A stretch of 64,000 nt of DNA from an uncultured bacterium (lineage in GTDB: Bacteria; Patescibacteriota; Minisyncoccia; Phycocordibacterales; UBA9973), in NCBI GenBank assembly GCA_937903035.1, contig CALCZP010000004.1, forward strand, positions 181,506 to 245,505, given 5' to 3'. Position 1 is the stretch's first letter. Each line of letters starts with the position of its first letter. Below the pieces are notes generated by a model. The model ran no database searches and was not told where the DNA came from. It worked only from the letters and a program-made list of their open reading frames with translations. This document shows positions 1 through 64,000 of this stretch, one piece after another. Position numbers and translations under genes: made by a program.

Positions 1-750
<750 letters not shown>

Positions 751-31969: not shown

Positions 31970-33862
31970 CTATGGTAGCACACGCTCGCCCCCTGGGGTA
32001 TAGACGGGATCGCTATCAAGTCTTGTTGTGAGTGGAGGTCGAGTCGTGGTAAGTGGCGCATTTGCAGCAGTATCAGTGGCAGTGACCATCGTCTCCCCGA
32101 GAAGCATAATGTCACTATCAATAGATGCCCGTGTCGGTCGAGCTTTGACCTGGAACGAAACAGTCTTCTTTTGGAGTGCTGAACCGTTTGCCTTTGGTAA
32201 TGTCCCAATATTCCAAGTCACAACTTTGCTCTCAGTGTTGTATGTAATCAACTCAGACTGCGGTACGACAACACCTGACCAGATAACTCCATTTGGAAGT
32301 GCTGCCGTTGCTTGAACATTGGTAAGTGCGTTCTCAGAAGGTCGGACAGTCCAGGTCAATGTATAGGTTGTTTCAATATCAGCCTTTGGTGGATATGGAC
32401 CAGTATTTTTAATAGGACCAATTGAGTACAGTGACTGGGCGGCAAACTGCAACGTCGAAGCAAATCGAACGGTCTTTTGGTCGATCATATCGATTGTTTG
32501 TTGGAAATAATCACGATCAGGAAATACGCCTGACACTGATAGTGAGAAAACCATATCAGGAGCACCTGGTCGAACTTGCTTGGTTGGGAATGTAAACATC
32601 AAATCTCCTTCCTGCCCTGGAGCAATAACAGTAAGTGCATTGTCAGACTCTGGTGTCCAAGTAATGGTGTGATCAAGGGCATTGTAGTAGCCATTGTCGA
32701 CCTTAAGCGCATTTACATCGATACCCTCTCCACCAAGCAAAAGCGTAAAGAGTGGCTTCACGACCGAAAGTGGTGAGTTGTTTTTCCAATGAATAGTACC
32801 CGTTACGGTAGCACCTGTTGAAATAGGAACAACATCATTTTTATCTCCATTAATCGCAATCTCTGCACTGATAAATGGCTGAGCGAGTATTATTGGATGA
32901 AGTACTGAGTTAAAGGTAACTGCAAGTCGCCGATCCGTAGCACTCTCGGGTGTTCCCGTATAAATACGAAACGACTTTTCATCATTTTCTTCACCCATGA
33001 GACGTCCTTGGATTTTAATGATGCGCTCAGTTCCTTTTTCGAGATCACCCAGTGACCACACGTTGTTACCAGATACCGGAGCTGGGTCTGCAGACTTAAA
33101 GACAAATCCGTTTGGATATTCAACACGAGTGATTACATCATTGAGTGCCTTGTCACCAGTGAAGTTGTTGCGAATAGTAAGTGTGAAAGGCTGACTCGAA
33201 ACAATAGCTGAGGGACCATCCGCAGTAAGTGTCACCGGAGATGAACTAATGATAACTGCAAAGTCTTGTTCACGCTGAAATGTTGAGCTTGAACCTGCAA
33301 GCTGATAACTAACACGCGCTTTAATACTCCTACTAAGGCCCTGCTCACCATACAGCACAACAGTAACTTCTTCACTTTTTGTTTTACCAGATCCGATCGT
33401 TCCAAGCTGTTTTTCGATATGCATCACATCGCTACCACTCTGATCAGTGGCACCTCTTGGGTAGTCAATTGATAGGATTGTATTGGTGAGGTCAACGGCA
33501 TTCTTGTTAGTAATCTCAATCTGTATAGGAAGCTCCTCTCCCCCACCTACGAATGAATTGCCGAGGATCTTTACTTCAACATTCTTGCTCGAAAGCGTAA
33601 TCGAGCCATGGTAAATAGAGTACAGAGCAATGCCAAGTCCAATGATGAAAAAGATGAATGAAAAAATGAAAAAACGTTTGTATCCAGCAGAGAGTTTTGG
33701 GTGACGAGCACGCTCATGTGGCACCTCAGCTTCACCCCATGTTGAGGAAATATTTTGCTTAATCGGCCGCAAGATACCAAACTTCCGCTTGGGAATGTTT
33801 TCGGGGTCGCGCGCATAGAGGCGCTGCTGCAAGTCACCAATATGATCTATTTCATCAGCCAT
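31970..33862 (-). CDS. Hypothetical membrane-anchored protein with a large extracytoplasmic beta-rich domain
   Basis: 630 aa. The N-terminus is cytoplasmic, followed by one TM (FFIFSFIFFIIGLGIALYSIY) and a large extracellular region. No family recognised. Confidence 0.45.
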   Translation of the reverse strand: MADEIDHIGDLQQRLYARDPENIPKRKFGILRPIKQNISSTWGEAEVPHERARHPKLSAGYKRFFIFSFIFFIIGLGIALYSIYHGSITLSSKNVEVKILGNSFVGGGEELPIQIEITNKNAVDLTNTILSIDYPRGATDQSGSDVMHIEKQLGTIGSGKTKSEEVTVVLYGEQGLSRSIKARVSYQLAGSSSTFQREQDFAVIISSSPVTLTADGPSAIVSSQPFTLTIRNNFTGDKALNDVITRVEYPNGFVFKSADPAPVSGNNVWSLGDLEKGTERIIKIQGRLMGEENDEKSFRIYTGTPESATDRRLAVTFNSVLHPIILAQPFISAEIAINGDKNDVVPISTGATVTGTIHWKNNSPLSVVKPLFTLLLGGEGIDVNALKVDNGYYNALDHTITWTPESDNALTVIAPGQEGDLMFTFPTKQVRPGAPDMVFSLSVSGVFPDRDYFQQTIDMIDQKTVRFASTLQFAAQSLYSIGPIKNTGPYPPKADIETTYTLTWTVRPSENALTNVQATAALPNGVIWSGVVVPQSELITYNTESKVVTWNIGTLPKANGSALQKKTVSFQVKARPTRASIDSDIMLLGETMVTATDTAANAPLTTTRPPLTTRLDSDPVYTPGGERVLP

Positions 33863-35448: not shown

Positions 35449-38400
35449 TTAGCTGAGTGTAATAGCTTCTCCACCAATCGCAACACTAGTGGCACCCACG
35501 GTCTTTTTCAGTTCCTCACCAAAACTATCAACGACTGATTGATACTGAAATGGAAGTGTAAGAGTGATGATATCAGATGGTGCAAGACCTTTGTCTTTGC
35601 GCATGTCTTGGACCGTACGTACAAGCTCACGGTACTCACCTTCGAGTTTAAGTTGAAGTGTGATCGTTGTATCAAGCTTTGTTTCTTCACCTGCGATCAC
35701 TGACTTCACATTGAGTTCCTGCATCACAATCGCTGCGTATTGGTCGCTGAGATTCCAGTTTTTGACATACAGTGCCTGGAGTGGCTGACGGACTGCGATA
35801 CCCTCTTTTTTACGAAGTGCATTTCCTTGTGTACAAACCTCGCGCACGGTAGCCATATCTTTCAATAGCTCATCACTCACTGGCATTACTGCTGGCCAAG
35901 TACTCAAGTGCACACTCTCCTCGTTTGATAAGGACTTCAATTTCTGCCAGATATCTTCTGCTGCAAATGGTGCAAATGGTGCCATGAGCTGTGCGACTGT
36001 TTTGAGTACGCGGTAGAGTGTCGCTTTTGCGGCAACATCACCATCCTTGATGCGATCGCGACTCCGACGCACATACCAGGTCGAAAGGTCATCAATAAAG
36101 TCACGAAGTGCTCGTACCGGCTCAAGTAGCTTGTAGGTATCGAGACTTTCAGTCATCAGACTCGTGAGTTGATCGAGCCGAGTTGTAATCCATGCGTCGA
36201 GCACATTATCACCACTTGGATCTACCTCTTCTACGTTTGGATCTCGATAGAGGTCGTAGAATGAGAGCACATTGTAGAGCAATCCGAATACCTGACGTTG
36301 AAGCTCGACGACTGTTTTCTCATCATAGTTCTTGCTATCACCTGGCTGGTTGACTGAGTACATCCAGAGACGGAGTGTATCGACACCGTACTTCTCCATT
36401 TGCTCCCATGGGTTCACGATGTTGCCAATAGACTTACTCATTTTCTTACCTTGTGCATCAAGAAGATGTCCAAGACAAATGACGTTTTTGTATGCCTTGC
36501 CACGCCCAGTGAGCAAGCCAATCGCATGGAGTGTGTAGAACCATCCACGAGTCTGATCGATAGCTTCGGAGATAAAGTCAGCTGGATATGCAATCTCTCC
36601 ATCAAACGGATAATGATCCTGTGCAAACGGCATCGCTCCTGAGTCAAACCACACATCCATCACCTCTTTGGTGCGGCGATATTCCTTGCCATCTTTGACA
36701 AGCACTACATCATCGATGAACGGACGGTGGAGATCAAGCTCAAACTGCGCATTATGTGGAAGTGGTACAAAGTGAAGCGGACGGACTTCGGCATTACTGA
36801 AGTTCACATAGTCGCGCGTTTCTTCAAAGAGACGATCAAAGCTAATCCCTCGCGCTACAAGCTCAAGTGCGCGCGTTGATGCACCATGGGCAACGATCAA
36901 AATATTCTTGCCCTGGTAGCGAGATTCAATATCGTAGAGCGCCTCACCTGCACGCTTGATCACATCGGCATATGATTCACCATCAACAGTCTTGAACCCA
37001 TAGCGATCAGCTGCCTTGTTGCGCATTTCAAAGTATGACTCGATCGGCTTTCCTTCAAATGCACTACCCACATTCCACTCCCCGAGACGAGCATCGGTCA
37101 CGATAGCTTCGGCAGCTAATCCAAGCTTCTCAGCGACAATACGCGCTGTCTCTTGGGTACGAGCAAATGGTGACGCGATGATGAGATCGATCTGTTTGTC
37201 AGCGAGCGCAGTCGCACTTTGAATTGCCTGCTCTTTGCCACGAGTGGTGAGTGGATTTGTGGTTGCAGTATTCACATTCCAGTTCCCTGCAACGTTAAAC
37301 TCTGTCTCGCCATGCCGCATGACAAAGTACTTGTTGTTATTATGCTTGGCATATTTCTTGAGCATATCGATCGAGTCGACAACCATGCGGTCAGTATCTT
37401 CTGAAATCCAAATCGGAAGCGGTGTGCCCCAGTAGCGCTCGCGTGAGATCGCCCAGTCCTTGATACCGTCGAGCCATTCGCCAAAGCGCCCTTCTTTGAT
37501 ATGTGACGGCTCCCAGTTGATGCTTTCATTCTCAGCAACAAGTGTGTCACGAAGTTTCGACATAGCGATATACCATGAGTCACGCGCGTAGTAGATGAGC
37601 GCAGTTTTACAGCGCCAGCAGTGCGGGTATGAGTGTTCGTACTTTTCTTTCTTGAAGAGGAGTCCGCGATGTGCGAGGTCTTTGATGATGTCGACTGCGA
37701 CTTCTTCGTCTTTGACAAATCTTCCTTCAAGAAAATCAGTGCCTGCAATAAACTTTCCTTCGACATTCACCGTGTGGAATTTCGGAAGACCAACCTTGGT
37801 ACCAAGCTCAAAGTCCTCTGCACCATACATTGGTGCAATATGGACGATACCACTACCATCAGTCGTTGTGACAAAGTCAGCAGTATAGACCTTATACGCA
37901 TTGGTAAGTTTTTCTTTTTCTGTACCAGTGATCTGTGCGGCAAGGTATGGATAGAGTGGCTCATACTGCATATCCGCCAAATCTTCTCCAAAATCTCTTC
38001 GCACTTCTTCATAACCATCACCAACCAAATCTTTTTTATCTTCAGCAACAATTAAAATTTCATTCTCTTTTTTGAGCCAAAGATATGTAATATTAGCACC
38101 TACCGCCAGTGCAACATTCCCTGGCAATGTCCATGGTGTTGTTGTCCAAGCAACAATATAAACATTCTCAAAATCCTTAACTTTTGCCTTAAACTTTGCG
38201 TATACTGTCAGATCTTTATCATCCTGATATCCTTGCGCAAGCTCATGGGTCGCAAGTGTTGTTCCGCATCGCGCACACCATGGTGAGACTCGATAGTCCT
38301 TGTAGAGGAGACCCTGATCGTTGACCTTACCGACAATATTCCAGAGACTCTCCATATAGCGAGGATTGAACGTGTAGTACGCCTTGTCCTTGTCGACCCA

Positions 38401-38823
38401 GTAGCCAATACGATCGGTGAAATCTTCCCAGTCTTTAATATAGGTAAAGACGCTGTCCTTACATTCTTTGTTAAATTTTTCGATACCGTAGGCTTCGATG
38501 TCTTTTTTTGAAGCAAGTTCCAATTTCTTTTCGATCTGAAGCTCGACCGGAAGTCCGTGAGTATCCCATCCGGCACGGCGCGGTACATGGAAGCCCTGCA
38601 TGGTCTTGTAGCGAGGGATCACGTCCTTGAATGCACGTGCGAGCAAGTGATGAAGCGCTGGCTTTGCATTTGCTGTTGGCGGTCCTTCAAAAAAGACAAA
38701 CTCACCCTTGGTCGCAGGCTTCTCAAGTGTTTTTTTGAATATGTCATTATCGCGCCAAAAATCGAGCATTCGCTCTTCACGAAGTGCCGACTCGCTTTTC
38801 TGTTGGTTTGTTGATTCATTCAT
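35449..38823 (-). CDS. ileS: Isoleucyl-tRNA synthetase carrying an in-frame histidine-phosphatase (PGAM-like) domain insertion
   Basis: 1124 aa. IleS catalytic core, CP1 editing domain (AWTTTPWTLPGN), KMSKS (KMSKSIGN) and anticodon-binding region are all present. Between ISRERYWGTPLP and DVWFDSG there is an extra ~200 aa with RHGETEFN...LIVAHGASTRAL, the two catalytic-His motifs of the histidine phosphatase superfamily. The HIGH-position reads ALHH. Confidence 0.85.
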   Translation of the reverse strand: MNESTNQQKSESALREERMLDFWRDNDIFKKTLEKPATKGEFVFFEGPPTANAKPALHHLLARAFKDVIPRYKTMQGFHVPRRAGWDTHGLPVELQIEKKLELASKKDIEAYGIEKFNKECKDSVFTYIKDWEDFTDRIGYWVDKDKAYYTFNPRYMESLWNIVGKVNDQGLLYKDYRVSPWCARCGTTLATHELAQGYQDDKDLTVYAKFKAKVKDFENVYIVAWTTTPWTLPGNVALAVGANITYLWLKKENEILIVAEDKKDLVGDGYEEVRRDFGEDLADMQYEPLYPYLAAQITGTEKEKLTNAYKVYTADFVTTTDGSGIVHIAPMYGAEDFELGTKVGLPKFHTVNVEGKFIAGTDFLEGRFVKDEEVAVDIIKDLAHRGLLFKKEKYEHSYPHCWRCKTALIYYARDSWYIAMSKLRDTLVAENESINWEPSHIKEGRFGEWLDGIKDWAISRERYWGTPLPIWISEDTDRMVVDSIDMLKKYAKHNNNKYFVMRHGETEFNVAGNWNVNTATTNPLTTRGKEQAIQSATALADKQIDLIIASPFARTQETARIVAEKLGLAAEAIVTDARLGEWNVGSAFEGKPIESYFEMRNKAADRYGFKTVDGESYADVIKRAGEALYDIESRYQGKNILIVAHGASTRALELVARGISFDRLFEETRDYVNFSNAEVRPLHFVPLPHNAQFELDLHRPFIDDVVLVKDGKEYRRTKEVMDVWFDSGAMPFAQDHYPFDGEIAYPADFISEAIDQTRGWFYTLHAIGLLTGRGKAYKNVICLGHLLDAQGKKMSKSIGNIVNPWEQMEKYGVDTLRLWMYSVNQPGDSKNYDEKTVVELQRQVFGLLYNVLSFYDLYRDPNVEEVDPSGDNVLDAWITTRLDQLTSLMTESLDTYKLLEPVRALRDFIDDLSTWYVRRSRDRIKDGDVAAKATLYRVLKTVAQLMAPFAPFAAEDIWQKLKSLSNEESVHLSTWPAVMPVSDELLKDMATVREVCTQGNALRKKEGIAVRQPLQALYVKNWNLSDQYAAIVMQELNVKSVIAGEETKLDTTITLQLKLEGEYRELVRTVQDMRKDKGLAPSDIITLTLPFQYQSVVDSFGEELKKTVGATSVAIGGEAITLS

Positions 38824-52681: not shown

Positions 52682-53365
52682 CTAGGCTTTTTTGTTGAGT
52701 TCGTCACCTATAAGTCTCCCATCAGCTAATGTAATAATCCGGTGACACATTGCTGCGTAGTCAGGCTCGTGGGTTACCATCACAATCGTCTGTCCATGCT
52801 TGTTGAGCTCAAGAAAGGCTTCAAGTACCGTGTGTGATGTCTCAGAGTCAAGGTTGGCGGTCGGCTCGTCAGCAAAGACAATCTTGGGGTCATGACCGAT
52901 CGCACGCGCAATGGAAACACGTTGTTGTTGTCCCCCAGAGAGCTGACTCGGAAGGTTGTGCATGCGATCAGAAAGTCCGACACGTGAGAGTGCATAGGCA
53001 GCTTTTTCGGAAGCTTTTTTCTCATCAAGACCCTGCATAAGGAGTGGCACCATAACATTTTCAAGTGCAGTAAGTGTCGGCAGGATTGCATAGTCCTGGA
53101 AAATATACCCAAGCGAGTTGAGACGAAGTCTCGTACGATCATGCTCAGAGAGGTTCACACTTTCAATACCGTCGATATAGACCTTCCCCCCAGTCGGCAT
53201 ATCAAGGAGTCCAAGCTGGTACAGGAGCGTACTTTTACCTGAACCACTACGACCAGTGATCGCCACAAACTGTCCTTCGGGAATATCAAATGAGACATCC
53301 TCCACTGCATGGATTTCAGCGTCTCCTGTTTTAAATGTTTTAAATAGATGTTCAACTTTAATCAT
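52682..53365 (-). CDS. ABC transporter ATP-binding protein (MacB/LolD/FtsE type)
   Basis: 227 aa with GRSGSGKSTLL, LSGGQQQRVSIARA and Walker B FADEPTANLD. Confidence 0.9.
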   Translation of the reverse strand: MIKVEHLFKTFKTGDAEIHAVEDVSFDIPEGQFVAITGRSGSGKSTLLYQLGLLDMPTGGKVYIDGIESVNLSEHDRTRLRLNSLGYIFQDYAILPTLTALENVMVPLLMQGLDEKKASEKAAYALSRVGLSDRMHNLPSQLSGGQQQRVSIARAIGHDPKIVFADEPTANLDSETSHTVLEAFLELNKHGQTIVMVTHEPDYAAMCHRIITLADGRLIGDELNKKA

Positions 53366-53390
53366 AAAAGTATTACTTCAAAAAAATATA

Positions 53391-54668
53391 TTATCTACCT
53401 AAAATAGCACTAAGCGTATTTTGTCTAATAACGATACGCGCCGGAATATATCCTGCGACAATCGTCGCGACGAGCAAGATCGCAGTGCGGATCAACGTAC
53501 CCGATACTGTCGCAACAAGGATACCATCAGAGAATGGAAAGTCGATCGGATGTGCAACAAAGAGCGGTTTCAAAAAGAGAAAGACAACCGCAATACCGAC
53601 CCCTGATCCTGCAAGTGCATAAAAAATAGACTGGAGTATGTATGAGACCGTGATTGCACGAGGTGTAATACCAATACCTTTCAAAATACCGATGAAGCGA
53701 CGGCGTGTGATGGCGTTCACAAAAATCACAATAAAGATTGTGATGGCAGCAACCACAAGACCGATTGATGAAATACCATTTCCAAGGATTGCAAACGTTG
53801 CTTGAATATCTTTGAGAAATTTTGGCATCGCTTCGTCATGCGTTTGCACACGTGCATGTTCACCCACCCCACTTGCAATAAGTGATGCCTTGGCAACAAT
53901 AGGATCAACCCCTGGGAGTAATCTGACAGCAATCTGGTTGGCATCGTAGTCACTACGTCCGATGAGTTTGCGGGCTTCACTATCGAGCATGATGACCGAC
54001 TGATCAAAGGTATCCACCTTGCTCGAAATGATGCCTTTCAAATAATATTCTTTGGTAATATCTCCCACTGTGAGCCTGATGCGTGAGCCTACGGTCACAT
54101 CTTTGAGTGTTTGAAATCCTGGCGCTTCGATCGGGGTGTATTTGTAGATTAAGTTCTTGCCAAGTACGATCTGGTCGCTATCTCCTGGTTCGATAAATGA
54201 ACCTTCCACCATGAACTTTGCAATATCAGAAAACGCTGCTTCGGTATCAGGATTGATACCGAGGATTGAGCCGCCTGCACCATCACGAATCTCACCTGGC
54301 TTGATCGTCGTACGGTAGTTGCTCTCAATACGAGCACTCCCTGTATACCGCACAGCGAGTCGTGAAAAGCCTGGCAATGTTTTAATGGTTGCTACCACGT
54401 CTGGTGTCTGCTCGATGTAAGGCTTATTGAGAAATGGTGAAATCAGGATATCACCGGATGAGTATTGCTTGTCCGCACTGACCGATCCTTCGATGAGACC
54501 CACCAAAATACCGGAGACCACTACGAGGTTCAAGAACGTGAGGAGCATCACAAAGATAATGAGTGATGTCGTCCAGAGACTTGCACGCTTGAGCTCACGC
54601 TTCGCAAGAAATGCCCCGACCCGGAAGTCGATCATGAGTGTCTGCCAGAATGTTCGGTGTGCTCCCAT
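53391..54668 (-). CDS. ABC transporter permease, MacB/FtsX type (1 TM, large extracytoplasmic domain, 3 TM)
   Basis: 425 aa with FtsX-like topology. The C-terminal segment reads LKGIGITPRAITVSYILQSIFYALAGSGVG. Confidence 0.8.
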   Translation of the reverse strand: MGAHRTFWQTLMIDFRVGAFLAKRELKRASLWTTSLIIFVMLLTFLNLVVVSGILVGLIEGSVSADKQYSSGDILISPFLNKPYIEQTPDVVATIKTLPGFSRLAVRYTGSARIESNYRTTIKPGEIRDGAGGSILGINPDTEAAFSDIAKFMVEGSFIEPGDSDQIVLGKNLIYKYTPIEAPGFQTLKDVTVGSRIRLTVGDITKEYYLKGIISSKVDTFDQSVIMLDSEARKLIGRSDYDANQIAVRLLPGVDPIVAKASLIASGVGEHARVQTHDEAMPKFLKDIQATFAILGNGISSIGLVVAAITIFIVIFVNAITRRRFIGILKGIGITPRAITVSYILQSIFYALAGSGVGIAVVFLFLKPLFVAHPIDFPFSDGILVATVSGTLIRTAILLVATIVAGYIPARIVIRQNTLSAILGR

Positions 54669-54680
54669 TACGTGGATTAA

Positions 54681-56120
54681 TTATTTTGTACTCCAGACTA
54701 CCTGGTCACCATCAGTGAGACCGCTTTTGATTTCAACCACATCACCGTCTCCACGAAGACCAACTTCCACCGTACGAGTCTCCGTTTTCTTGTGACGAGC
54801 ATCAACGAGCACATCCACGGTATAGGCACCCTCTGGTGTATGCGTGAGTGCGCGACCAGGAATGGTCAGTACTTGGGTGAGGTGCGCCGCACTGATCGTC
54901 ATATTCGCTGTCATGCCAGGACGGATGTTTTCACTGTCACGAAGGAGTGCTTTGATCTTGTAGTTGACAATACTGTCCACAATAGTAGCTGAGGGATCGA
55001 TCGATGAGATCGCCGCCTGGTACGGCTTGTTGCTGCCAAATGCATCAAACGTCACTGCCACTGGCTGCTCAAGTGAAAGCAATGCAACCGATGTTTCATT
55101 AATGTTTGCTTCGAGATAGAGGTTGGATACATCCTGAAGAACAATGACTGGCTTGAGTGCATCAGGCACTTCACCTACTTTCACATCCACCCGAGTGATC
55201 GTACCGTCTGCAGGTGCACGAAGAATAGTCTTCTCAAGCGACGCATTTGCCGCATCAACTTGTGCCTGTGCGCTCACGATATCTGCAAGCGCTGCATCAA
55301 TCTCTGGCTGACGTGCCGTTGCACGAGTGAGTGCGAGCGCTGCTTCCTTTTCTTCGACGAGTGCTTTATTGGCAGTGTAGTTTGGACCACTTTTGTTTGG
55401 GATCAAAACCTTCCAGCTTGCATCAGCATCATTTGTTTTTGATGGAAATGCAATGCGGAGTCCTTTGGCACCAAGCGGTTGTGGCAAGACATCCACATCA
55501 GCGGTTCCCTTTTCAAGACCAGTAAAGCGGACATCAGTTTTCGTAAACGTATCAAATGAAATACGATATTCCCCTTCAACATCACCCGTATACGTACCAG
55601 TGATCACCGGAGCCTGCGCTGTATCACTCGCATCCTGCGGATCAGCGATGAGATCATCGCTGTAGAGTTTGCGAAGCGCATTTTGGAGCTGCACCTTTGC
55701 AAGTGCGACTTCTTCGTTTGAATTACCCTGGAGTACCTTATCATAGCGTGCTTGTGCCGCAAGAAGTCCGCCGCGCGCACTCTGATACGTTGCACGCTCA
55801 CTCGCATTCTTTTGCGTTGCGATGATGTCACCTTTTTTAACCTTGGTGCCAACCACAACACGAAGACTATCCACCATTTTGGTTGATTCAAATGAGAGTG
55901 AGAGGTCGGTCGAACTTACGACCACTCCACTTGCTGCAACCGTGCGATCAAGATCCTGACGCTTTGCTGTCTCAGTCACAAAGTCAGCATCAGCCTTGCC
56001 ACCACCGAGGAGCACGATGAGTGCAATACCAATGAGCGCAATGATGAGTACTTTGACGCGAAGGCGACGAGCGCTCCACCATACCTTGAATCTGTTCCAG
56101 AATTCTTTGACCTTTTGCAT
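54681..56120 (-). CDS. Membrane-fusion/periplasmic adaptor protein (HlyD/MacA-like)
   Basis: N-terminal TM, then biotinyl/lipoyl-like and coiled-coil regions and a beta-barrel domain. The start is set to the ATG at 56120, since the ORF-track start is TTG. Confidence 0.7.
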   Translation of the reverse strand: MQKVKEFWNRFKVWWSARRLRVKVLIIALIGIALIVLLGGGKADADFVTETAKRQDLDRTVAASGVVVSSTDLSLSFESTKMVDSLRVVVGTKVKKGDIIATQKNASERATYQSARGGLLAAQARYDKVLQGNSNEEVALAKVQLQNALRKLYSDDLIADPQDASDTAQAPVITGTYTGDVEGEYRISFDTFTKTDVRFTGLEKGTADVDVLPQPLGAKGLRIAFPSKTNDADASWKVLIPNKSGPNYTANKALVEEKEAALALTRATARQPEIDAALADIVSAQAQVDAANASLEKTILRAPADGTITRVDVKVGEVPDALKPVIVLQDVSNLYLEANINETSVALLSLEQPVAVTFDAFGSNKPYQAAISSIDPSATIVDSIVNYKIKALLRDSENIRPGMTANMTISAAHLTQVLTIPGRALTHTPEGAYTVDVLVDARHKKTETRTVEVGLRGDGDVVEIKSGLTDGDQVVWSTK

Positions 56121-56121
56121 A

Positions 56122-56664
56122 TTATTTAATACCCACAAGCTCTACTTCAAAGACAAGTGTTGCATTCGGAGGAATCACCCCGCCCGCACCAGCTGCTCCA
56201 TAGCCGAGCTCTGGTGGAATAGTGAGCATGCGAACTTCGCCAACTTTCATACCGAGCACACCTTCGTCCCATCCTTTGATCACCTGACCTGCGCCAAGTT
56301 TGAATGAGAAGGTACTGCCGCGAGGCTTGCTCGCATCAAATGTTGTGCCATCGGTAAGCTTGCCGACATAGTGGACTTCTGCGGTCTGTCCGTTGGTAAT
56401 GGCTGGGCCAGTGCCCTCTTTGGTGGTTTGAATAGTCATTTTTTTAGGATTAGATTGATTGGTAGTAGTTGGTGATTGTGGCTGCTGTTGTTGCTGCGTG
56501 CCTTCGATCGATGTTGGTTTTGACTCAGTAGATTCAGTAATCGATGGCGGCGGTGTCGTGGTATCTGATACCTGCACATCCTTTGGTGCTCCACCTAGCC
56601 ACCATATCAGAAGACCGATGCCTCCTGCAAGAATGATTCCTATAATGTATTTTTTCATATCCAT
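56122..56664 (-). CDS. Membrane-anchored FKBP-type peptidyl-prolyl cis-trans isomerase
   Basis: 180 aa with an N-terminal TM and a Thr/Pro/Gln-rich linker. The C-terminal FKBP domain reads VHYVGKLTDGTTFDAS...GWDEGVLGMKVGEVRMLTIPPELGYG. Confidence 0.9.
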   Translation of the reverse strand: MDMKKYIIGIILAGGIGLLIWWLGGAPKDVQVSDTTTPPPSITESTESKPTSIEGTQQQQQPQSPTTTNQSNPKKMTIQTTKEGTGPAITNGQTAEVHYVGKLTDGTTFDASKPRGSTFSFKLGAGQVIKGWDEGVLGMKVGEVRMLTIPPELGYGAAGAGGVIPPNATLVFEVELVGIK

Positions 56665-56736: not shown

Positions 56737-58518
56737 TTAATTTGCAATGAACCGATACCCTGTACGAGGTGACCATGGAAGAGGTGTCGGTGATTGTATC
56801 CAGACAATACCATCAGTTGATGTCCAAATCTTATTGCCGAATGATCCGACATTTCGACTATCACCCACTACCATGGTTCCCTGTACTACCACCGCGTCCA
56901 TTTCTTGAAAGAGACCAATAGACGACGGGAATGTTGTACTCAGTAATGTCCATGAACTTCCGTTTGTTGAAGTATAAATTGAACGAGAAGATCCTCCTGA
57001 TACACCGCTCCATGCAACACCGCCCATGAAATACATTTTGTTGTTGTAGTTGAGGATTTTTGCATCGCTTGTGGTTCCAAGGATAGATGTGTCCGCAACT
57101 TTTGACCATGATATGCCGTTGATACTTTTCCATATATCTGACTGCGCATAGCTACATGGCAGACCTGATGTCGTACTATACCCCATTGGCACCGTGCACC
57201 CTGAAGGTAATACGCCCTGCACGCCACCAATCACATAGAGCGATCCATTAAATACTCCAAGTGTCGGATTTTCTCGCGCGAAAAACGGGAGTTGCACAGT
57301 CGTCCAATTGATACCATCAGTTGTTGACCATGCCTTTGCATATTCGATACCTCCCATATAATTTGAACGACCTCCAATAACGTAGATTTTGTTATTAAAC
57401 ACGATCGATTTATATCGATAATAATCAGCAAATGGTACTGTTGATGCAACCTGACTCCACGTCGTACCGTTAGATGAGTTCCATATATCAGTAAGACGCG
57501 GCACAAACGGCGTACCACCACCGAATACCCAGTATTTATTATTAAAAGAAAGTGCTTCGAAACTTCGACGGCCCGACCACATTGATGAAGCAGCAGTATT
57601 TGTAGACATTAATGACCACTGCTGAAGATTAGACGAAGAAAAAATGTCATTAAATGATGCATAAGGTGTTACGTCATTCCCACCCCCAAGAAATACTAGT
57701 GTACTAGAAGTAACAGATGGTGGGATAATTGCTGGACCAATAGTAAAGGTATTCCCTACAGGAGCAACACTTCCTATACCAGCCCACGTATACTGACCGG
57801 GAAAATCATAGTAGGTGTCTATTTGTACATTAATTTGAGCACCAACAAATGCAGTAGTTCGTATATCACCGTAGATTGCAAATTTCTTTGTCTCACCTGC
57901 AGTAAACGACAACATGAGTGGGATAAATTTATTTTCAAACGAAGATCCGATGAGTGGATCTACGATCGTTGTTCCGATCTGTACATTATCAGCACGAAGA
58001 AGCAGATTGGTAACCGTTGAAGAAACGACCGGACTTTGCGGTATGGTGATAGATATTCCATAGAGCGTGAGCGGATTATTAGCAGTGAAATCAAATTCCG
58101 CCAATTTCACGTTTGTAGTTCCCGCAGGAACTGTCTGAGCAGGAGGATTATCGATAGAAATAGTGGTTGTCAGGGTCGGAAGCGGATCATCCAAACATTT
58201 TTTGATCTTACTTATCCCCTTTTGTCGACACAATGGTGTTGCAACAATCTCGGGAGCTACTTCAAGTTGTGGCAACACTTGTCGTGGTGGTTTGATACCA
58301 CCTGTTTGAAAGGTAGGAATTTCAACGGTATCAATATCTTTTATATCGCGAGAAGGACGAATAGTCTCCCCTTTCGTAGGTACAACAGTCTCGATTTCAG
58401 CTATTTCTGATAGAGCAGAAAGGCTCTCAAGTGAGCGTCCAAACAGACGACTATTGTCGTTTTGTACTGGTACAAATACTCCAATACAAATCATTACTAC
58501 GGCGATATATCTATTCAT
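56737..58518 (-). CDS. Secreted Kelch-repeat beta-propeller protein
   Basis: 593 aa with a signal/TM N-terminus. The C-terminal half has repeated Kelch-type blades: NNKYWVFGGG, NNKIYVIGG, NGSLYVIGG and NNKMYFMGG. Confidence 0.65.
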   Translation of the reverse strand: MNRYIAVVMICIGVFVPVQNDNSRLFGRSLESLSALSEIAEIETVVPTKGETIRPSRDIKDIDTVEIPTFQTGGIKPPRQVLPQLEVAPEIVATPLCRQKGISKIKKCLDDPLPTLTTTISIDNPPAQTVPAGTTNVKLAEFDFTANNPLTLYGISITIPQSPVVSSTVTNLLLRADNVQIGTTIVDPLIGSSFENKFIPLMLSFTAGETKKFAIYGDIRTTAFVGAQINVQIDTYYDFPGQYTWAGIGSVAPVGNTFTIGPAIIPPSVTSSTLVFLGGGNDVTPYASFNDIFSSSNLQQWSLMSTNTAASSMWSGRRSFEALSFNNKYWVFGGGTPFVPRLTDIWNSSNGTTWSQVASTVPFADYYRYKSIVFNNKIYVIGGRSNYMGGIEYAKAWSTTDGINWTTVQLPFFARENPTLGVFNGSLYVIGGVQGVLPSGCTVPMGYSTTSGLPCSYAQSDIWKSINGISWSKVADTSILGTTSDAKILNYNNKMYFMGGVAWSGVSGGSSRSIYTSTNGSSWTLLSTTFPSSIGLFQEMDAVVVQGTMVVGDSRNVGSFGNKIWTSTDGIVWIQSPTPLPWSPRTGYRFIAN

Positions 58519-58559
58519 ATATGATGAATATTGTACATATTATATGAATAATGTCAATA

Positions 58560-61500
58560 TTACTCCCCTTCACTTGGTGCAGGAGCAGATGCTTCGCCGC
58601 TTCCTTCATCAGCCGGAGCACTTTCACCACCTTCATCCACAGGAGGTGTTTCTTCACTTGGAGATGTCACCTCACCCCCTCCGTCATCTGCAGGTGGTGG
58701 TGTCTGTTCATCACCTGATCCATCATTACTACTTCCTCCACTTGCTCCCCCTGCATTTGCTGCACCATTTTGAAGGAGCTGCTGGAGCTGATCTTTGCTG
58801 ACACAGACCTGATCTTCATCAGTACCGACACAGAGCTCTTCAGTCGTGACTTTCTTGGTCTTTACACTGTCCACGAGTGCTTCGCCACGCTCTGCAATAC
58901 CCTGGAGGAAGGTCGCGACTTTCTCGGCAAAGGTCTGATCTTCAAATACTGGCAATGCCTGTACCTTTATATCCATCTCTTGAATAGCTTTAATCGTATA
59001 AGGGATAAATCCGCCATAACCAACTGACTTGAATCCAGTAAGTGGATCAGTCTTTACAAGCTCAGGAAAGAGCTGTTCCACTTCCTGTGCAATGAAGCCT
59101 CCATGCGCTGGATCACTATCATCCTCTTTATTCCAGTTGTAGGTTACAGCACGAAGCTGAAGAATACGACCAAGAATACCATCTTCAACGCTTACAATAT
59201 TTTTCTTAAGCCGCTCATCAGAACTACAACTAAGAACTGCATTATCTACATCAATATCACAATGACCGTTTTGGTTTTCAAATCGAGCAACAACACCATC
59301 AGTAAGACTTCCATCACCAACATCCAATGTAAAATTGGCACCCGTATTCATAATACCCAATTTAAAGCCTGACTGATAGTTAGGATCACCGATAAATGAC
59401 GAGTTACCTGCAGGGTTAGAATCGAATCTCATAAACGGATCCCCTCCTGAAGCACCTGCTATATTAAGCTCACTATTCGTTGCATTAATACCATAGGTGA
59501 ACGCATCACTTCCAAGATGGTCATAGAAATAAAATCCGTTATCTGACGTACCACCTCCAATATTAAGGATTCGCTGGTTGGTTGAAGGATTTCTAAAATC
59601 TATCTCTGCGGTTGAAGGGTTTGCCTCTACATAGAAAAATGCAGTGTTGCTTCCTGATTCCTTAAGTCTAAGGAAACTACTTGATGAAGAAGTGTTAGCA
59701 ACAAAGAAGTCAGTATTTATAGGACTTCTTATATTAAATGCAGAACCAGTCGAATACGCCTCCATTAACATCGATTGATATCCTGTTATTGGATTAGTGA
59801 GACTCATTATGGCCTGCCCGGAATCCCCTTCCAGATGGAAGAATTCATTACCAGTTATTTCAGTTGCAGTAATGATAGTATCACTACCAGTTCCATACAT
59901 TTTGAAAAGTTCATTACCCTGTCTTTGGAAAGAAATTGATGCAGTCGTTGAATTTCCATATCCGGTGAAATATGTATCACCATTTTGATCAGACACATTA
60001 AAAGATGATCCTGTTGTTGAGGCAGATATACCAAATGCCTGATTTCCATTCGATGGTTCGGAAATAGTAAATGAACTAAAATTTGTACCACCAACAGCAT
60101 TCAAGAAGTTGTTACCATCACGATTGGAAGCCGAGATATAGTTGGTAGTCGTATTTCCTGATGCACTAAACATGTCATTTCCTTGGTATCCACTAAGACT
60201 CATGCCCCAGTATGTTGAAGCACCATAGAGATTGAACAAACCGTCACCTGTTGCACTATTGGAAACACTTATCCCGCCATTTACAGAAAGTTGGTTACTA
60301 CCATTATTCCAGACAAAGTTTGAACTCGCGCCGAATGCACCAGAGTTGTTGAACTGAATCTGGGTATTTGATCCTGCAGGAGTTCCGCCACCACTGCCAA
60401 TGTTTGTCCATGAGCCAGCACTGTTCTTGTACTGCATGGTGCCACTATTGTCGCGGATACCGTATCCAGATGAACCAAGTGTGCCAGTGAAGTTCAAATA
60501 GCTATTAGAAGGGTTGAGTGCAAGACCATTTCCAGTGAATTGAGCATATTCAGTAGCAGCATCACCAAACGAGACCTTCCCAGCATTTGGATATTGTTTG
60601 ATCCATGAACGAAGCGTTGAAGGTGTGAGGAATGACGCATCAACCGAAACACCACGAACATAACTTGTACTTTGCCAGTCAGTACCAGTGCTTTCGCGAA
60701 CAAGAAAGTCATTGATCATGAAGCTATTGGTCTGACCATTACCAGTAACACGGTTGAGTGTTTTGTAATTTCCAGTAGTTCCTCCTAGGTTGCCATAGAC
60801 AGTATTTTGAACAGTTCCACTCACATATACTGGCTCATTTACGTTCAAGCCAGCACCGTTGCTTGTAAACTGACCTCCGGCAAACACATACTGTCCATCA
60901 CCATAATCATACGATGCGATAGAAGTACCATTATAGTCTTCATACAGACCAGTCTCATCACAGGTACCAACGCATCCATTACCGATAAATGCACGACCAC
61001 TACCACCACTACCCATGATAATACTGTCTGAGTAAATGGCCGAACTTGCATGAACGTTTCCATTCACATCAAGGTTATAGCCAGGCGCTGGTGTGCCAAT
61101 ACCAACCCTTCCATTAGTATCAATTCCCATTCGAAAAGTATTACCGGTACCAAACTGAAGACCTTTACTTCCAGTTGTAGTAATATATGCAGTTTCCCCA
61201 TTCATACCTCCTGAAATAAGTGCAGATGCGTATGCGGAACCACCGTATCCAATTTCCAAAGCACGACTCGAACTATTTTGATCATTATAGATCCGGAGGC
61301 TTCCATAACTTGATGATGTAGGAGCTCGCAAAATAATACTATTAGCATCACCAACAATTTCAAGTTTTGCACCTGGTGCTTTTGTACCAATACCGATACT
61401 ACCTGAACTTATGGTTGTTCCCGTACCGTCAAGACCCGTACCATAAATCAAGTTTCCAATACTAAGCTGATTTGATCCCGTTGCTGAAGCAACATATGCA

Positions 61501-64000
61501 GCCTGACCAATAGCGATATTCCCCGAACCTGAAGTGAGATTGTTTAATGTTGCAGGACCAATCGCAACATTGTTTGAACCTGTTGAAAGCGAAGTGAGTG
61601 TATTGTATCCAATACCAAGGTTGTAATTACCAGAAGTAAGCGATGGGACTGCGGCATCACCCACACCAACGTTACCAGTACCAGTACCTAATGATTGCAA
61701 TGCAGCAGCACCAACTGCAACGTTCCACTGTGCTGTAGTACTTGTTGAAAGCGCCGCATTACCCACCGCAACGTTGTCTGATCCGGTTAAATTTGATTGA
61801 AGCGCAAACACACCAATGGCAGTATTTGTCGCACCATCAGTATTTGAGATGAGTGCATTGTAGCCGAGTGCTGTATTTCCTTCAGATCCACCACTTACAT
61901 TAGTTTGTTGAGAGCCGATAATGAAGATGTCGTTAGAACCTGAATATGCAATTGCGTAGTCTTGGATATTAGTGAGTCCTCCACCATTACCATAATATGT
62001 ACCAACTGCATGTATATCTCCATTAACATCAAGAGTATATGACGGCATAGTACCAATACCGACCTTACCTGCAGTTGGCTGAAGGATGAGATTTTCCCAT
62101 GCAACACTTTGGTTTACTGCTTCAATGAAGCCAAAGTTGCTGGTCGTATTATATCCAATGTTGAGTTTATGGCTTGTACTACCTGTACCACGTATCGACA
62201 TTTGAGAAGCACTTCCGCTCGTATTATTAACCAGATTTCCTGCTATCTCAAATGTTCGTGTTGGACCAGTGGTACCAATACCAATACCTGAACCGTTGTC
62301 ATATATAAGACTATTACCAATCGCTGAACCACTTGTGAACTTTGGAATATAATTTGTTGTACCTAAAACACTTGCTGAAGTAAGGACAGGATTACCACCT
62401 ACATACAGATCACCGAAGTATCCAATGTTTGCATTAACTTCATTCCAGCGATACGTTGTAGTACCAAGACTGCCTCCAAAATCATTTGTCGGAACGATGT
62501 TACCGTTTGCTTGCAAGACACCTTCAAAGTTATCACTCGTACTGCTAAGGAGCACGTTTCCTGTATTACCTTTGATATGGAGACGATCCACAAAGCCACC
62601 GATATCAGGCTGCATCACATTGATTGCAAAGTCACCAAAGCGGCCATATTGATCGTAGTTTGGATCTTGAATCGTACCGTCAAGGCGCACGACCTCAATA
62701 TCATTGTTATCAATATCAGCACTCTTAAAGAGAATCGATGCACCAGAGTTGTCACTGTTTGAACTGTTGTCATCACTGCGACGTGTAAGGGTGAGCATTG
62801 TGGTTGGATCACTATAGTTACTATTCACCTGATCAGCCATTAATGACTTGGTTCTGAGGTTACCATTCATATCAAGCTCAAGGAGATTTGCCGGTGCAGA
62901 CCATCCACCAATACGAAATACGTTGTCATAATCAAGCCCCATATTGATTGCAAATGCGCCCCCTCGATGGAATGACATAAACGCTGGTCCTGTGTCATTT
63001 GAATATGCTTGCAACGATGGTGTATCACTTGCATTGAGACTGACAACACCTTTATTACTGTAAAAATGAGTAGCACCATTCACATCTCCACCACTAAGCG
63101 GCAAGTATGAACCGAGTGATGAAGCGGTTGCGAAGTATGACGTGTCATGACCATCAAGCAGATCAGCATCAAGCAAACTTCCTGACCCATCATTACCCTG
63201 TGTCCAAATATTGCTACCGTTTGCAGTAACTGATGTTCCGTACAAATCAAGGTTTGTAATCGTAAATCCTGAACGAGTGACGTTCATAAAGCTATTTGCA
63301 TTACTATATGCATCATTAATAGCACGGAATTGTAATGTCTTGCCGGTTGCATTTTGCTCGATATCCCATCGCTTCTCATTGGTTCCACCACTTGATGCAT
63401 TGGTACTCAAAAGTCTGATTACATTTGCACCATTTTCGACAATACCACCGTAGTCGCTAACATTAACATTCACACTTGATCCAAAGGTAGTTATACCTGA
63501 GGTATCAATCGTTACCCGCGCAACACCACCAGTAACAAGAGAAAGTGGGCTTGCATTTTGTGTTCCTATAATACCTAAATATCCAACGGTTGGGTTGAGA
63601 TAGAGTCGTGCAGTATTCGATGCACCAAGAGCATTAATCGTCACAACAGGCTCGACATCAGTAAATGTTGCATAGGTTGCACTGAGTGATCCACTAAACA
63701 CACCATCTCCTGATCCACCATAGAGTGCTATCTTTTGTGTTCCAGATGCATTATTAACCTGGACGACCCCCTCATTACTCGCATTTGCATACACATTGTA
63801 AATAATATTGCCTGCTGATTGGTTGAGAATATACTGACCAGTTCCATTTGTTGCAGCAACTGTTCTAATTGAACCACTTGAAACTATTGCTCCATTGTTA
63901 TCAACATACAATTTATCAGTACCACTTTTTGCAAGTTGTAATAGATTACCTGAACCAGTTGTGGTCGCGTATATAACTGGTGTGTTGTTTGAAGTAGATA
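58560..64000 (-). CDS. Giant (>1800 aa, 5' end outside the window) surface-fibre / phage-tail-fibre-like protein with a C-terminal Peptidase_S74 intramolecular-chaperone autoprotease domain and an acidic Pro-rich tail
   Basis: The ORF stays open to the window edge. It has repeated (V/I)GIGT..P....L(D/E)V.G motifs typical of tail-fibre/beta-helix repeats. The C-terminus reads LSCSSDERLKKNIVSVEDGILGRILQLRAVTYNWN...GGFIAQEV, matching the SDxRLKxNI...YNW signature of the endosialidase/tail-spike chaperone domain. Confidence 0.7.
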   Translation of the reverse strand, partial: STSNNTPVIYATTTGSGNLLQLAKSGTDKLYVDNNGAIVSSGSIRTVAATNGTGQYILNQSAGNIIYNVYANASNEGVVQVNNASGTQKIALYGGSGDGVFSGSLSATYATFTDVEPVVTINALGASNTARLYLNPTVGYLGIIGTQNASPLSLVTGGVARVTIDTSGITTFGSSVNVNVSDYGGIVENGANVIRLLSTNASSGGTNEKRWDIEQNATGKTLQFRAINDAYSNANSFMNVTRSGFTITNLDLYGTSVTANGSNIWTQGNDGSGSLLDADLLDGHDTSYFATASSLGSYLPLSGGDVNGATHFYSNKGVVSLNASDTPSLQAYSNDTGPAFMSFHRGGAFAINMGLDYDNVFRIGGWSAPANLLELDMNGNLRTKSLMADQVNSNYSDPTTMLTLTRRSDDNSSNSDNSGASILFKSADIDNNDIEVVRLDGTIQDPNYDQYGRFGDFAINVMQPDIGGFVDRLHIKGNTGNVLLSSTSDNFEGVLQANGNIVPTNDFGGSLGTTTYRWNEVNANIGYFGDLYVGGNPVLTSASVLGTTNYIPKFTSGSAIGNSLIYDNGSGIGIGTTGPTRTFEIAGNLVNNTSGSASQMSIRGTGSTSHKLNIGYNTTSNFGFIEAVNQSVAWENLILQPTAGKVGIGTMPSYTLDVNGDIHAVGTYYGNGGGLTNIQDYAIAYSGSNDIFIIGSQQTNVSGGSEGNTALGYNALISNTDGATNTAIGVFALQSNLTGSDNVAVGNAALSTSTTAQWNVAVGAAALQSLGTGTGNVGVGDAAVPSLTSGNYNLGIGYNTLTSLSTGSNNVAIGPATLNNLTSGSGNIAIGQAAYVASATGSNQLSIGNLIYGTGLDGTGTTISSGSIGIGTKAPGAKLEIVGDANSIILRAPTSSSYGSLRIYNDQNSSSRALEIGYGGSAYASALISGGMNGETAYITTTGSKGLQFGTGNTFRMGIDTNGRVGIGTPAPGYNLDVNGNVHASSAIYSDSIIMGSGGSGRAFIGNGCVGTCDETGLYEDYNGTSIASYDYGDGQYVFAGGQFTSNGAGLNVNEPVYVSGTVQNTVYGNLGGTTGNYKTLNRVTGNGQTNSFMINDFLVRESTGTDWQSTSYVRGVSVDASFLTPSTLRSWIKQYPNAGKVSFGDAATEYAQFTGNGLALNPSNSYLNFTGTLGSSGYGIRDNSGTMQYKNSAGSWTNIGSGGGTPAGSNTQIQFNNSGAFGASSNFVWNNGSNQLSVNGGISVSNSATGDGLFNLYGASTYWGMSLSGYQGNDMFSASGNTTTNYISASNRDGNNFLNAVGGTNFSSFTISEPSNGNQAFGISASTTGSSFNVSDQNGDTYFTGYGNSTTASISFQRQGNELFKMYGTGSDTIITATEITGNEFFHLEGDSGQAIMSLTNPITGYQSMLMEAYSTGSAFNIRSPINTDFFVANTSSSSSFLRLKESGSNTAFFYVEANPSTAEIDFRNPSTNQRILNIGGGTSDNGFYFYDHLGSDAFTYGINATNSELNIAGASGGDPFMRFDSNPAGNSSFIGDPNYQSGFKLGIMNTGANFTLDVGDGSLTDGVVARFENQNGHCDIDVDNAVLSCSSDERLKKNIVSVEDGILGRILQLRAVTYNWNKEDDSDPAHGGFIAQEVEQLFPELVKTDPLTGFKSVGYGGFIPYTIKAIQEMDIKVQALPVFEDQTFAEKVATFLQGIAERGEALVDSVKTKKVTTEELCVGTDEDQVCVSKDQLQQLLQNGAANAGGASGGSSNDGSGDEQTPPPADDGGGEVTSPSEETPPVDEGGESAPADEGSGEASAPAPSEGE

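Follow-up and report, generated by a model that had tools for sequence, protein, structure and literature searches.

What is a Peptidase S74 domain, an intramolecular chaperone shared with phage tail fibres, doing near the end of a giant protein of an uncultured, ultrasmall Patescibacteria bacterium? The question is raised by a 64,000-nucleotide stretch of contig CALCZP010000004.1 (hereafter the window), which carries on its minus strand the 3' part of a gene for a very long fibre protein. Here, we have analysed the C-terminal part of this protein and its surroundings. The Peptidase S74 identity of the domain is confirmed, far beyond chance. We show that the Ser-Lys dyad and the chaperone fold of the domain are intact, and that the gene is a cellular one, located on the chromosome of a Paceibacteria (Patescibacteria, or Candidate Phyla Radiation, CPR) bacterium and not in a phage. 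We consider it probable that the S74 domain is functional in a fibre made by the cell, where it would template folding, cut the chain and expose the tip of what is likely an adhesin. An S74 domain is ordinary by itself, being a well-known, textbook family that routine Pfam annotation can find. The added interest lies in the host lineage, in a rare C-terminal extension, and in a tip-plus-chaperone cassette that differs between strains.

Identity, dyad and fold of the S74 domain

A preliminary description of the locus had placed an S74 domain at the C-terminus of a giant protein, in the interval 58900-59235, by means of three strings (LSCSSDERLKKNIVSVEDG, RAVTYNWN and GGFIAQEVEQLFPELV). All three are found in the minus-strand open reading frame (ORF) 58560..63911, the first TTG of which begins the residue numbering used here. 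The S74 signature does lie in that interval, although the upper coordinate is one base off (the frame starts at 59234). The domain itself also stands, but it is not the very end of the protein, as the stop codon comes 220 residues on from the catalytic Ser. Read on the plus strand, the same interval gives a translation crowded with stops, and three small overlapping plus-strand ORFs were taken as spurious.

A search with PF13884 (Peptidase_S74), which the preliminary description had called for, gave a match far above threshold (E=5.9e-16, 59 bits against a gathering cutoff of 22). The match covers positions 1-58 of the 58 in the model and ORF residues 1564-1620, that is, window 59052-59222 on the minus strand. 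The same family matches a 3,439-residue allele of the protein, P0195, with 60.8 bits, and a custom S74 hidden Markov model (HMM) matches the full-length fibre protein with E=1.4e-38. S74 is the sole Pfam domain both in the window part of the fibre protein and in P0195. No second S74 domain was found in a six-frame scan of the window, and no NCBIfam family was found for the fibre protein. The S74 core runs on past the Pfam match through a long helix, PYTIKAIQEMDIKVQAL.

The site motif reads L1560-S-C-S-S1564-D-E-R-L-K1569-K-N-I. Alignment of the window protein with the K1F endosialidase and the T5 fibre protein pb1, both taken from GenBank records, had also been proposed, and it shows the dyad to be intact: Ser1564 and Lys1569 (SDERLK) align with S911/K916 of K1F and with S1264/K1269 of T5 pb1. 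An H-x-G-x-I-A-Q block is common to the three proteins, and sequence identity to K1F and T5 is 20-25% only. Across 85 aligned homologues there is no variation in the S, D and K of SDxxxK or in Q1609. A sequence search of the PDB gave two matches, the S16 gp37 fibre (6f45_A) and a tail fibre (8jov_1), both of which run across the SDxRLK site. The role of these residues is established in other S74 domains. In T5 pb1, the S1264A substitution blocks auto-proteolysis, Lys1269 activates the Ser, and an Arg of the neighbouring chain ties cleavage to the correct trimer (PMC4690869). Similarly, Bd3182 of Bdellovibrio self-cleaves at S782, and cleavage is blocked by S782A (PMC10769870).

In the AlphaFold model of the last 279 residues, the S74 core has a predicted local distance difference test (pLDDT) score of 94-98, and beta strands directly precede Ser1564 in this monomer model. 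A Foldseek search of the PDB with E<=0.001 returned only three chains of the intramolecular chaperone auto-processing (ICA) domain of MyRF (7dc3; E=2.4e-4, probability 1.0). Next came the GA-1 chaperone 3gud (E=1.1e-2, probability 1.0) and then the K1F chaperone 3gw6 (E from 1.8e-2), with probabilities of 0.7-1.0 across these top matches. Nothing unrelated to S74/ICA chaperones was found in the PDB below E=1. Pacifastin-like matches of the 279-residue model were dismissed as weak (probability at most 0.18). In the three-sequence alignment, the helix 'IAERGEALVDSV' also fell on the coiled-coil helix that ends K1F and T5; this assignment was dropped, because closer short-form homologues end at the preceding helix.

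The fibre, its cellular gene and its strain-variable tip

Overlooked in the preliminary description were the cellular, Patescibacteria nature of the gene, its truncation by the window, a clade-specific module between the S74 core and the tail, and the strain-variable cassette. The frame runs off the window edge without a stop, so that no more than the last 1,812 residues of the fibre are inside the window. The full product has 3,457 residues on contig ERZ650244 NODE_1 (405 kb), which matches exactly over the stretch compared, so that ORF residue n is residue n+1674 of the full protein. Among the retrieved fibre-like homologues, which range from 1,000 to 3,757 residues, this length is at the extreme upper end. 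Gly, Ser, Thr and Asn are abundant in the protein, which has only six Cys, in three local pairs. It has no hydrophobic segment of membrane-helix grade; the maximum 19-residue Kyte-Doolittle mean is 1.22 and is not in the C-terminal part.

The shaft is marked by the capping-loop motif, which was defined for S74 fibres and MyRF (PMC10769870). Five strict matches occur in the full protein, where 500 shuffles gave 0.036 on average; four of the five are within the window, at ORF residues 543, 617, 839 and 936. Matches to PHROG tail-spike families span residues 621-827. At the distal end, a Cys pair (C1551/C1562) is located right before the predicted cleavage site and is common to the closest homologues, and the motif 'VARFxNSxGxCxINPTxxSLSCSSD' recurs in Patescibacteria homologues.

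Two further observations concern the upstream part of the fibre gene. An internal module with the consensus GNDGSGSxLDADLLDG...SFHRGGxxAxNMGLDxDNVFRIGGWSA...DMxGNL is found directly before the S74 site in many other fibres. Its similarity to the homologue P0124 stops at 'MDMSGNL', nine residues short of the Ser at the S74 site of P0124; in our fibre no S74 domain follows and the fibre continues. The module looks like a fossil of module shuffling. In addition, a 400-nt segment at window 62420-62819 is repeated ~2.45 kb further upstream, outside the window (L004 3246-3645), with 79.5% nucleotide identity.

The surroundings of the gene are those of a bacterial chromosome. At the start of the window is the 5' part of a bacterial 23S rRNA gene. 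Next to the fibre gene, on its downstream side, ten genes encode a Kelch-like membrane-anchored protein, an FKBP isomerase, an HlyD/FtsX/ABC transporter, SIMPL, NusG, L11, DHFR and ThyX-like proteins, and further along are methionyl-, isoleucyl- and arginyl-tRNA synthetases, FtsK, a P-type ATPase, glycosyltransferases and an O-antigen-ligase-like protein. None of the 20 largest ORFs that neighbour it in the window, which holds 58 kb downstream of the fibre gene, was recognised as a phage gene. Clustered at 90% identity, the L11 and NusG of the window group with proteins named Candidatus Paceibacterota, Candidatus Pacebacteria and Patescibacteria group bacterium, and the closest relatives of the last 279 residues of the fibre (<=45% identity) come from metagenome-assembled genomes (MAGs) of Nomurabacteria, Paceibacterota and Patescibacteria. 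Of two full-length relatives viewed on their own contigs, P0126 (1,812 residues) adjoins TrwB/VirB4-like ATPases and P0134 (2,060 residues) lies between a leucyl-tRNA synthetase (LeuRS) and MurJ/LepA; no phage structural genes were found on either contig. A search of the E. coli genome gave no match and is uninformative.

That the distal tip and the S74 core form a cassette of ~1.5 kb that varies between otherwise near-identical strains came from comparing the alleles of two metagenome samples, L004 (cassette at 8140-9670) and L005, the latter from the second sample, ERZ650287. By blastn, the two are 99.87% identical over 8.2 kb of the gene upstream, have no nucleotide match over 1,135 nt, and are 98.5% identical downstream. 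In a 60-nt profile, identity drops sharply at ~60,350, the 5' boundary, and is 30-60% across the tip and the start of S74. On the 3' side the change is gradual through the S74 core, with identity reaching 95% at ~58,790 and 100% from 58,733 on. The cassette alleles share 38.6% protein identity over 440 residues, and no silent copy of the other tip allele was found within the window. The profile therefore indicates that the tip and the chaperone core are exchanged together and that the shaft, extension and tail are kept. Such an exchange is a known pattern for the receptor-binding modules of phage fibres. Since this cassette pattern is as expected for a receptor-binding tip, an adhesin is the most likely role of the fibre. 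Work on Bdellovibrio terms such exchange 'tip swapping' and proposes it as a route of repertoire diversification (PMC10769870).

The C-terminal module, proposed maturation and alternatives

In the extension that follows the S74 core, two helices (FAEKVATFLQGIAERGEALV and, after it, KDQLQQLLQNG) flank a beta-hairpin (ELCVGTDEDQVCVS) that two Cys close; these hairpin residues, C1694 and C1703, are invariant in 36 sequences. By tblastn, the last 279 residues matched 310 phage records, and these matches never went past query residue 155, the end of the long helix, leaving the extension and tail unmatched. A single-sequence HMMER search of 1.84 billion cluster representatives with the extension as query found 58 clusters only. 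The matches are always 60-130 residues from a C-terminus, and the custom S74 HMM places an S74 domain directly upstream of the extension in most of them and in nearly all full-length ones. Nothing was found in the extension by Pfam and NCBIfam; modelled alone it gives a poor model (pLDDT 63) with no PDB fold match below E=1. Separately, the Cys-hairpin-plus-helix unit (query residues 37-61) occurs seven times in the unrelated protein P0309 (1,512 residues, with a signal peptide), and can therefore act as a stand-alone repeat.

The tail contains 16 Asp/Glu, 9 Pro, 14 Gly and 10 Ser but no Lys or Arg, and its isoelectric point (pI) is ~4. Like tails are found in 92 family proteins, with medians of 65 residues, 17% Pro, 26% Ser+Thr, 17% Asp+Glu and 0% Lys+Arg. 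No tandem repeats were found in the tail-coding DNA. In a few members, for example P0134 and P0025, a DUF5011 Ig-like domain (PF16403) comes after the tail. From Ser1564 to the end of our protein there are 220 residues with a mass of 23.1 kDa and a pI of 4.1. Beyond the last ~200 residues there is hardly any similarity between family members. The C-terminal unit behaves like a mobile cap that sits on widely differing shafts. One possible role of the extension and tail is to maintain the solubility of unfolded C-termini outside the cell before trimerisation; alternatively, they may be a sorting or anchoring element.

How could these parts work together? By analogy with the experiments on K1F, T5 (PMC4690869) and Bd3182 (PMC10769870), the fibre would be trimeric and proteolytically matured. 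We propose that three fibre chains are first exported. Many full-length family members begin with Sec-type signal peptides (for example '...KRTLxxLxFLxLYSxxxxFATPP' and, in P0285, '...VVVIVGLLVGPSLANA'), so that the family appears to be exported, and by the clear signals of its relatives our fibre protein probably is as well. The three S74 domains would then come together and act as the template on which the upstream beta-helical fibre folds, starting from its C-terminal end. Once the correct trimer has formed, Lys1569 would activate Ser1564 and the chain would be cut directly before Ser1564, releasing a 220-residue, 23-kDa acidic fragment made up of the S74 core, the extension and the tail. 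A cut at Ser1564 would necessarily remove the acidic Pro-rich tail together with the chaperone, as the preliminary description had predicted. Release of the fragment would expose the distal tip of the fibre, which could bind a host cell or another surface in the manner of the S74-type fibres of Bdellovibrio.

Bdellovibrio bacteriovorus has 21 mosaic adhesive trimeric (MAT) fibres, 13 of which end in an S74 domain with SDxxxK. They carry V-G-G/N-pi-x-x-P-x-x-x-L capping loops, also present in MyRF, and have a signal peptide, a conserved N-terminal domain thought to be at the cell surface, and a variable tip that points outward (PMC10769870). An S74-type MAT fibre such as Bd3182 is the closest characterised analogue of our giant fibre. 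Both are encoded by a bacterium living on other bacteria and not by a phage, and in both a long fibre with capping loops, predicted to be beta-helical in our case, leads to a variable tip and then to a terminal S74 domain that contains SDxxxK. Signal peptides are found in members of our family too, and tip swapping has been proposed for MAT fibres. However, the host here is a monoderm-like Patescibacteria bacterium and not a Gram-negative predator, the protein has 3,457 residues compared with ~922 in Bd3182, and ~125 extra residues (extension and acidic tail), unreported for MAT fibres, follow the S74 core. No equivalent of the ~130-residue beta-rich N-terminal domain of MAT fibres was identified here, without direct comparison to the MAT sequence, and the sequence search of the PDB gave no match to MAT tips.

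The phage chaperones, namely those of K1F endosialidase gp17 (3GW6), the T5 L-shaped tail fibre pb1 (4UW8; PMC4690869), the GA-1 neck appendage (3GUD) and S16 gp37 (6F45), have in common with our domain the Pfam family, the Ser/Lys(+5) dyad, the H-x-G-x-I-A-Q block and the Foldseek fold. In both cases the domain comes directly after a trimeric beta-structured tip, although for our fibre the trimer is a prediction. They differ in that our gene is outside any phage genome, that phage domains do not go far, if at all, beyond the coiled-coil helix, and that the long 'tentacle' insertions of K1F and T5 are absent here. The Patescibacteria 'tail fiber domain-containing proteins', which are automatic MAG annotations only, share the Cys pair before the site, the extension and the tail. 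Giant surface proteins of the CPR predator Vampirococcus lugosii have been proposed as host-attachment factors of CPR bacteria; they contain WD40, PKD, DUF11 and integrin domains and not S74 (PMC8080830). In the literature that we searched, no paper links S74 domains to Patescibacteria.

How ultrasmall Patescibacteria recognise and hold their hosts is largely unknown, and in the literature found, type IV pili are the one attachment factor tested by experiment. The giant fibre is a candidate for this role, as a predicted self-maturing, phage-like trimeric fibre with a strain-variable tip. It would extend the idea behind MAT fibres, that cells borrow the receptor-binding architecture of phages, to a second and very different lineage living on bacteria. 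Moreover, how such fibres are handled outside the cytoplasm may be revealed by the clade-specific module, a small and well-delimited unit that follows the S74 core. It is conceivable, although we think it doubtful, that the fibre is the host-recognition organelle of an episymbiotic Patescibacteria cell, which would swap tip and cognate chaperone as a cassette in phage-like fashion to switch host range, and that the extension and the Lys/Arg-free tail are a hitherto undescribed, Patescibacteria-specific signal for sorting, anchoring or secretion competence, uncoupled from the fibre by S74 cleavage.

We would like to point out that several observations weigh against a functional, self-maturing adhesin. 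TM-scores to solved chaperone domains are moderate (0.53-0.63, target-normalised), because a monomer model was compared with chains of intertwined trimers. The candidate oxyanion-hole residue Arg1543 ('VARF', compare 'NRF' of K1F) is at -21 from the Ser and not at -14, and some close homologues have Q, H, S or T in its place. Counterparts of T5 Asp1239 and Arg1250 (K1F Arg897) could not be placed with confidence in the fibre protein. The called N-terminus of the fibre, MLAVASTVSIFSWQAASAP, is only weakly signal-like, with a mean hydropathy of 1.18 over 19 residues and without a basic n-region; the start codon may therefore be miscalled. The survey of the context covers the downstream side of the gene, and the unread upstream flank could hold phage genes. 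Lastly, trimerisation and cleavage are predicted purely by homology, and the adhesin role is suggested by context.

Among the alternatives, the best structural match invites a release switch like that of MyRF, in which the envelope or a sorting machinery would hold the C-terminal fragment and cleavage would free a soluble or transferable trimer. The ICA domain of MyRF, the eukaryotic myelin regulatory factor (7DC3; TM-score 0.63, target-normalised), is an S74 domain used by a cell and not by a virus, and the extension and Lys/Arg-free tail are rare, always C-terminal and kept between strains, as a sorting or anchoring signal would be. MyRF, however, is a membrane-tethered transcription factor with a DNA-binding domain in place of the fibre and a transmembrane helix after the ICA domain, whereas in our protein no transmembrane or hydrophobic segment follows S74 (hydropathy nowhere exceeds the maximum given above). 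Neither an LPXTG-like nor another known sorting motif was found, the extension is blank in Pfam and NCBIfam, and the cell-proximal end of MAT fibres is proposed to be the N-terminal domain (PMC10769870). We regard such a switch as improbable.

Still less probable is that S74 serves as a trimerisation nucleus without cleavage, so that the extension and acidic tail would never be shed and would form a lasting distal or envelope-interacting part of the fibre. That these two parts are kept between strains when the S74 core is swapped does suggest a function of their own, and a folded DUF5011 domain after the tail of P0134 and P0025 is unexpected on a piece to be discarded. On the other hand, the Ser, Asp and Lys of SDxxxK are invariant in the 85 homologues, as selection for catalysis would give, and every S74 domain with this motif tested so far cleaves: K1F, T5 and Bd3182 (PMC4690869, PMC10769870).

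We give the least credence to a tail fibre of a prophage, or of a prophage remnant, integrated in the chromosome, with an S74 domain for the cytoplasmic maturation of a virion fibre: the protein does match PHROG tail-spike and tail-fibre families, its last 279 residues match annotated tail fibres in the 310 phage records, its homologues bear the NCBI label 'tail fiber domain-containing protein' and the upstream region is unread, but all genes examined in the 58 kb downstream are cellular, P0126 and P0134 sit among cellular genes (LeuRS, MurJ, LepA), virion fibres assembled in the cytoplasm have no need of the Sec signal peptides seen in the family, the extension and tail are unmatched in phage records, and the protein is at the very top of the length range of its homologues. 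A fibre made, exported and matured by the Paceibacteria cell remains our preferred reading.

Feature coordinates and neighbouring genes

Table 1. Features of the fibre gene in window coordinates, with the evidence for each
Feature	Coordinates	Strand	Evidence
3' part of giant fibre gene, 1,812 codons and stop	58560..64000	minus	ORF translation, open frame
Internal copy of pre-S74 module, ORF residues 238-352	62856..63200	minus	55% identity to P0124 residues 807-915
Fibre shaft with 'VGIGTxxPxxxL' capping-loop motifs	61100..62290	minus	regular-expression search
Strain-variable cassette: distal tip (~380 residues) and S74 core	58850..60380	minus	blastn, 60-nt identity profile
Last strands of mature fibre (predicted), GVVARFENQNGHCDIDVDNAVLSCS, ORF residues 1539-1563	59223..59297	minus	model pLDDT 73-87, homologue motif
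Peptidase S74 / intramolecular chaperone core	58959..59222	minus	PF13884, custom HMM, pLDDT, Foldseek, PDB sequence matches
Codon of Ser1564 (Ser3238 of full protein), predicted nucleophile and scissile residue	59220..59222	minus	invariance, alignment
Codon of Lys1569, predicted general base of Ser-Lys dyad at Ser+5	59205..59207	minus	invariance, alignment
Clade-specific extension, 64 residues, ORF residues 1657-1720	58752..58943	minus	tblastn, HMMER, Cys conservation
Disordered acidic tail, 67 residues	58563..58763	minus	composition, pLDDT 50-57

The next gene (56737-58518, minus strand) starts 41 nt downstream of the fibre gene and encodes the Kelch-like protein, which has 593 residues, an N-terminal hydrophobic anchor and a C-terminal Kelch-like beta-propeller, and may be a second surface protein. 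The spacer between the two genes (58519-58559) contains a near-consensus promoter-like site, TTGACA-16-TACAAT, and a two-copy 20-nt tandem repeat; no terminator was found on the minus strand between them. Directly downstream of both genes (52682-56664, minus strand) is the FKBP-type prolyl isomerase, with an N-terminal extension of ~85 residues, followed by an HlyD-like adaptor, an FtsX permease and an ABC ATPase in a MacAB-like set. This arrangement is not kept around P0126 and P0134.

The 5' part of the 23S gene is at 1-749 (minus strand). Protein-coding ORFs are found from ~400 nt upstream of this gene and the whole 64 kb is devoid of tRNA genes, so that the 23S gene seems to lack a preceding 16S gene and spacer tRNAs, as is often the case in Patescibacteria. 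The isoleucyl-tRNA synthetase (35449-38823, minus strand; 1,124 residues) has a His_Phos_1 histidine-phosphatase domain inserted at residues 500-674, and the LeuRS that adjoins P0134 in L008 has hydrolase and NUDIX matches. A 630-residue protein at 31970-33862 (minus strand) contains a DUF11 repeat, a domain typical of cell-surface proteins, and is a candidate envelope component.

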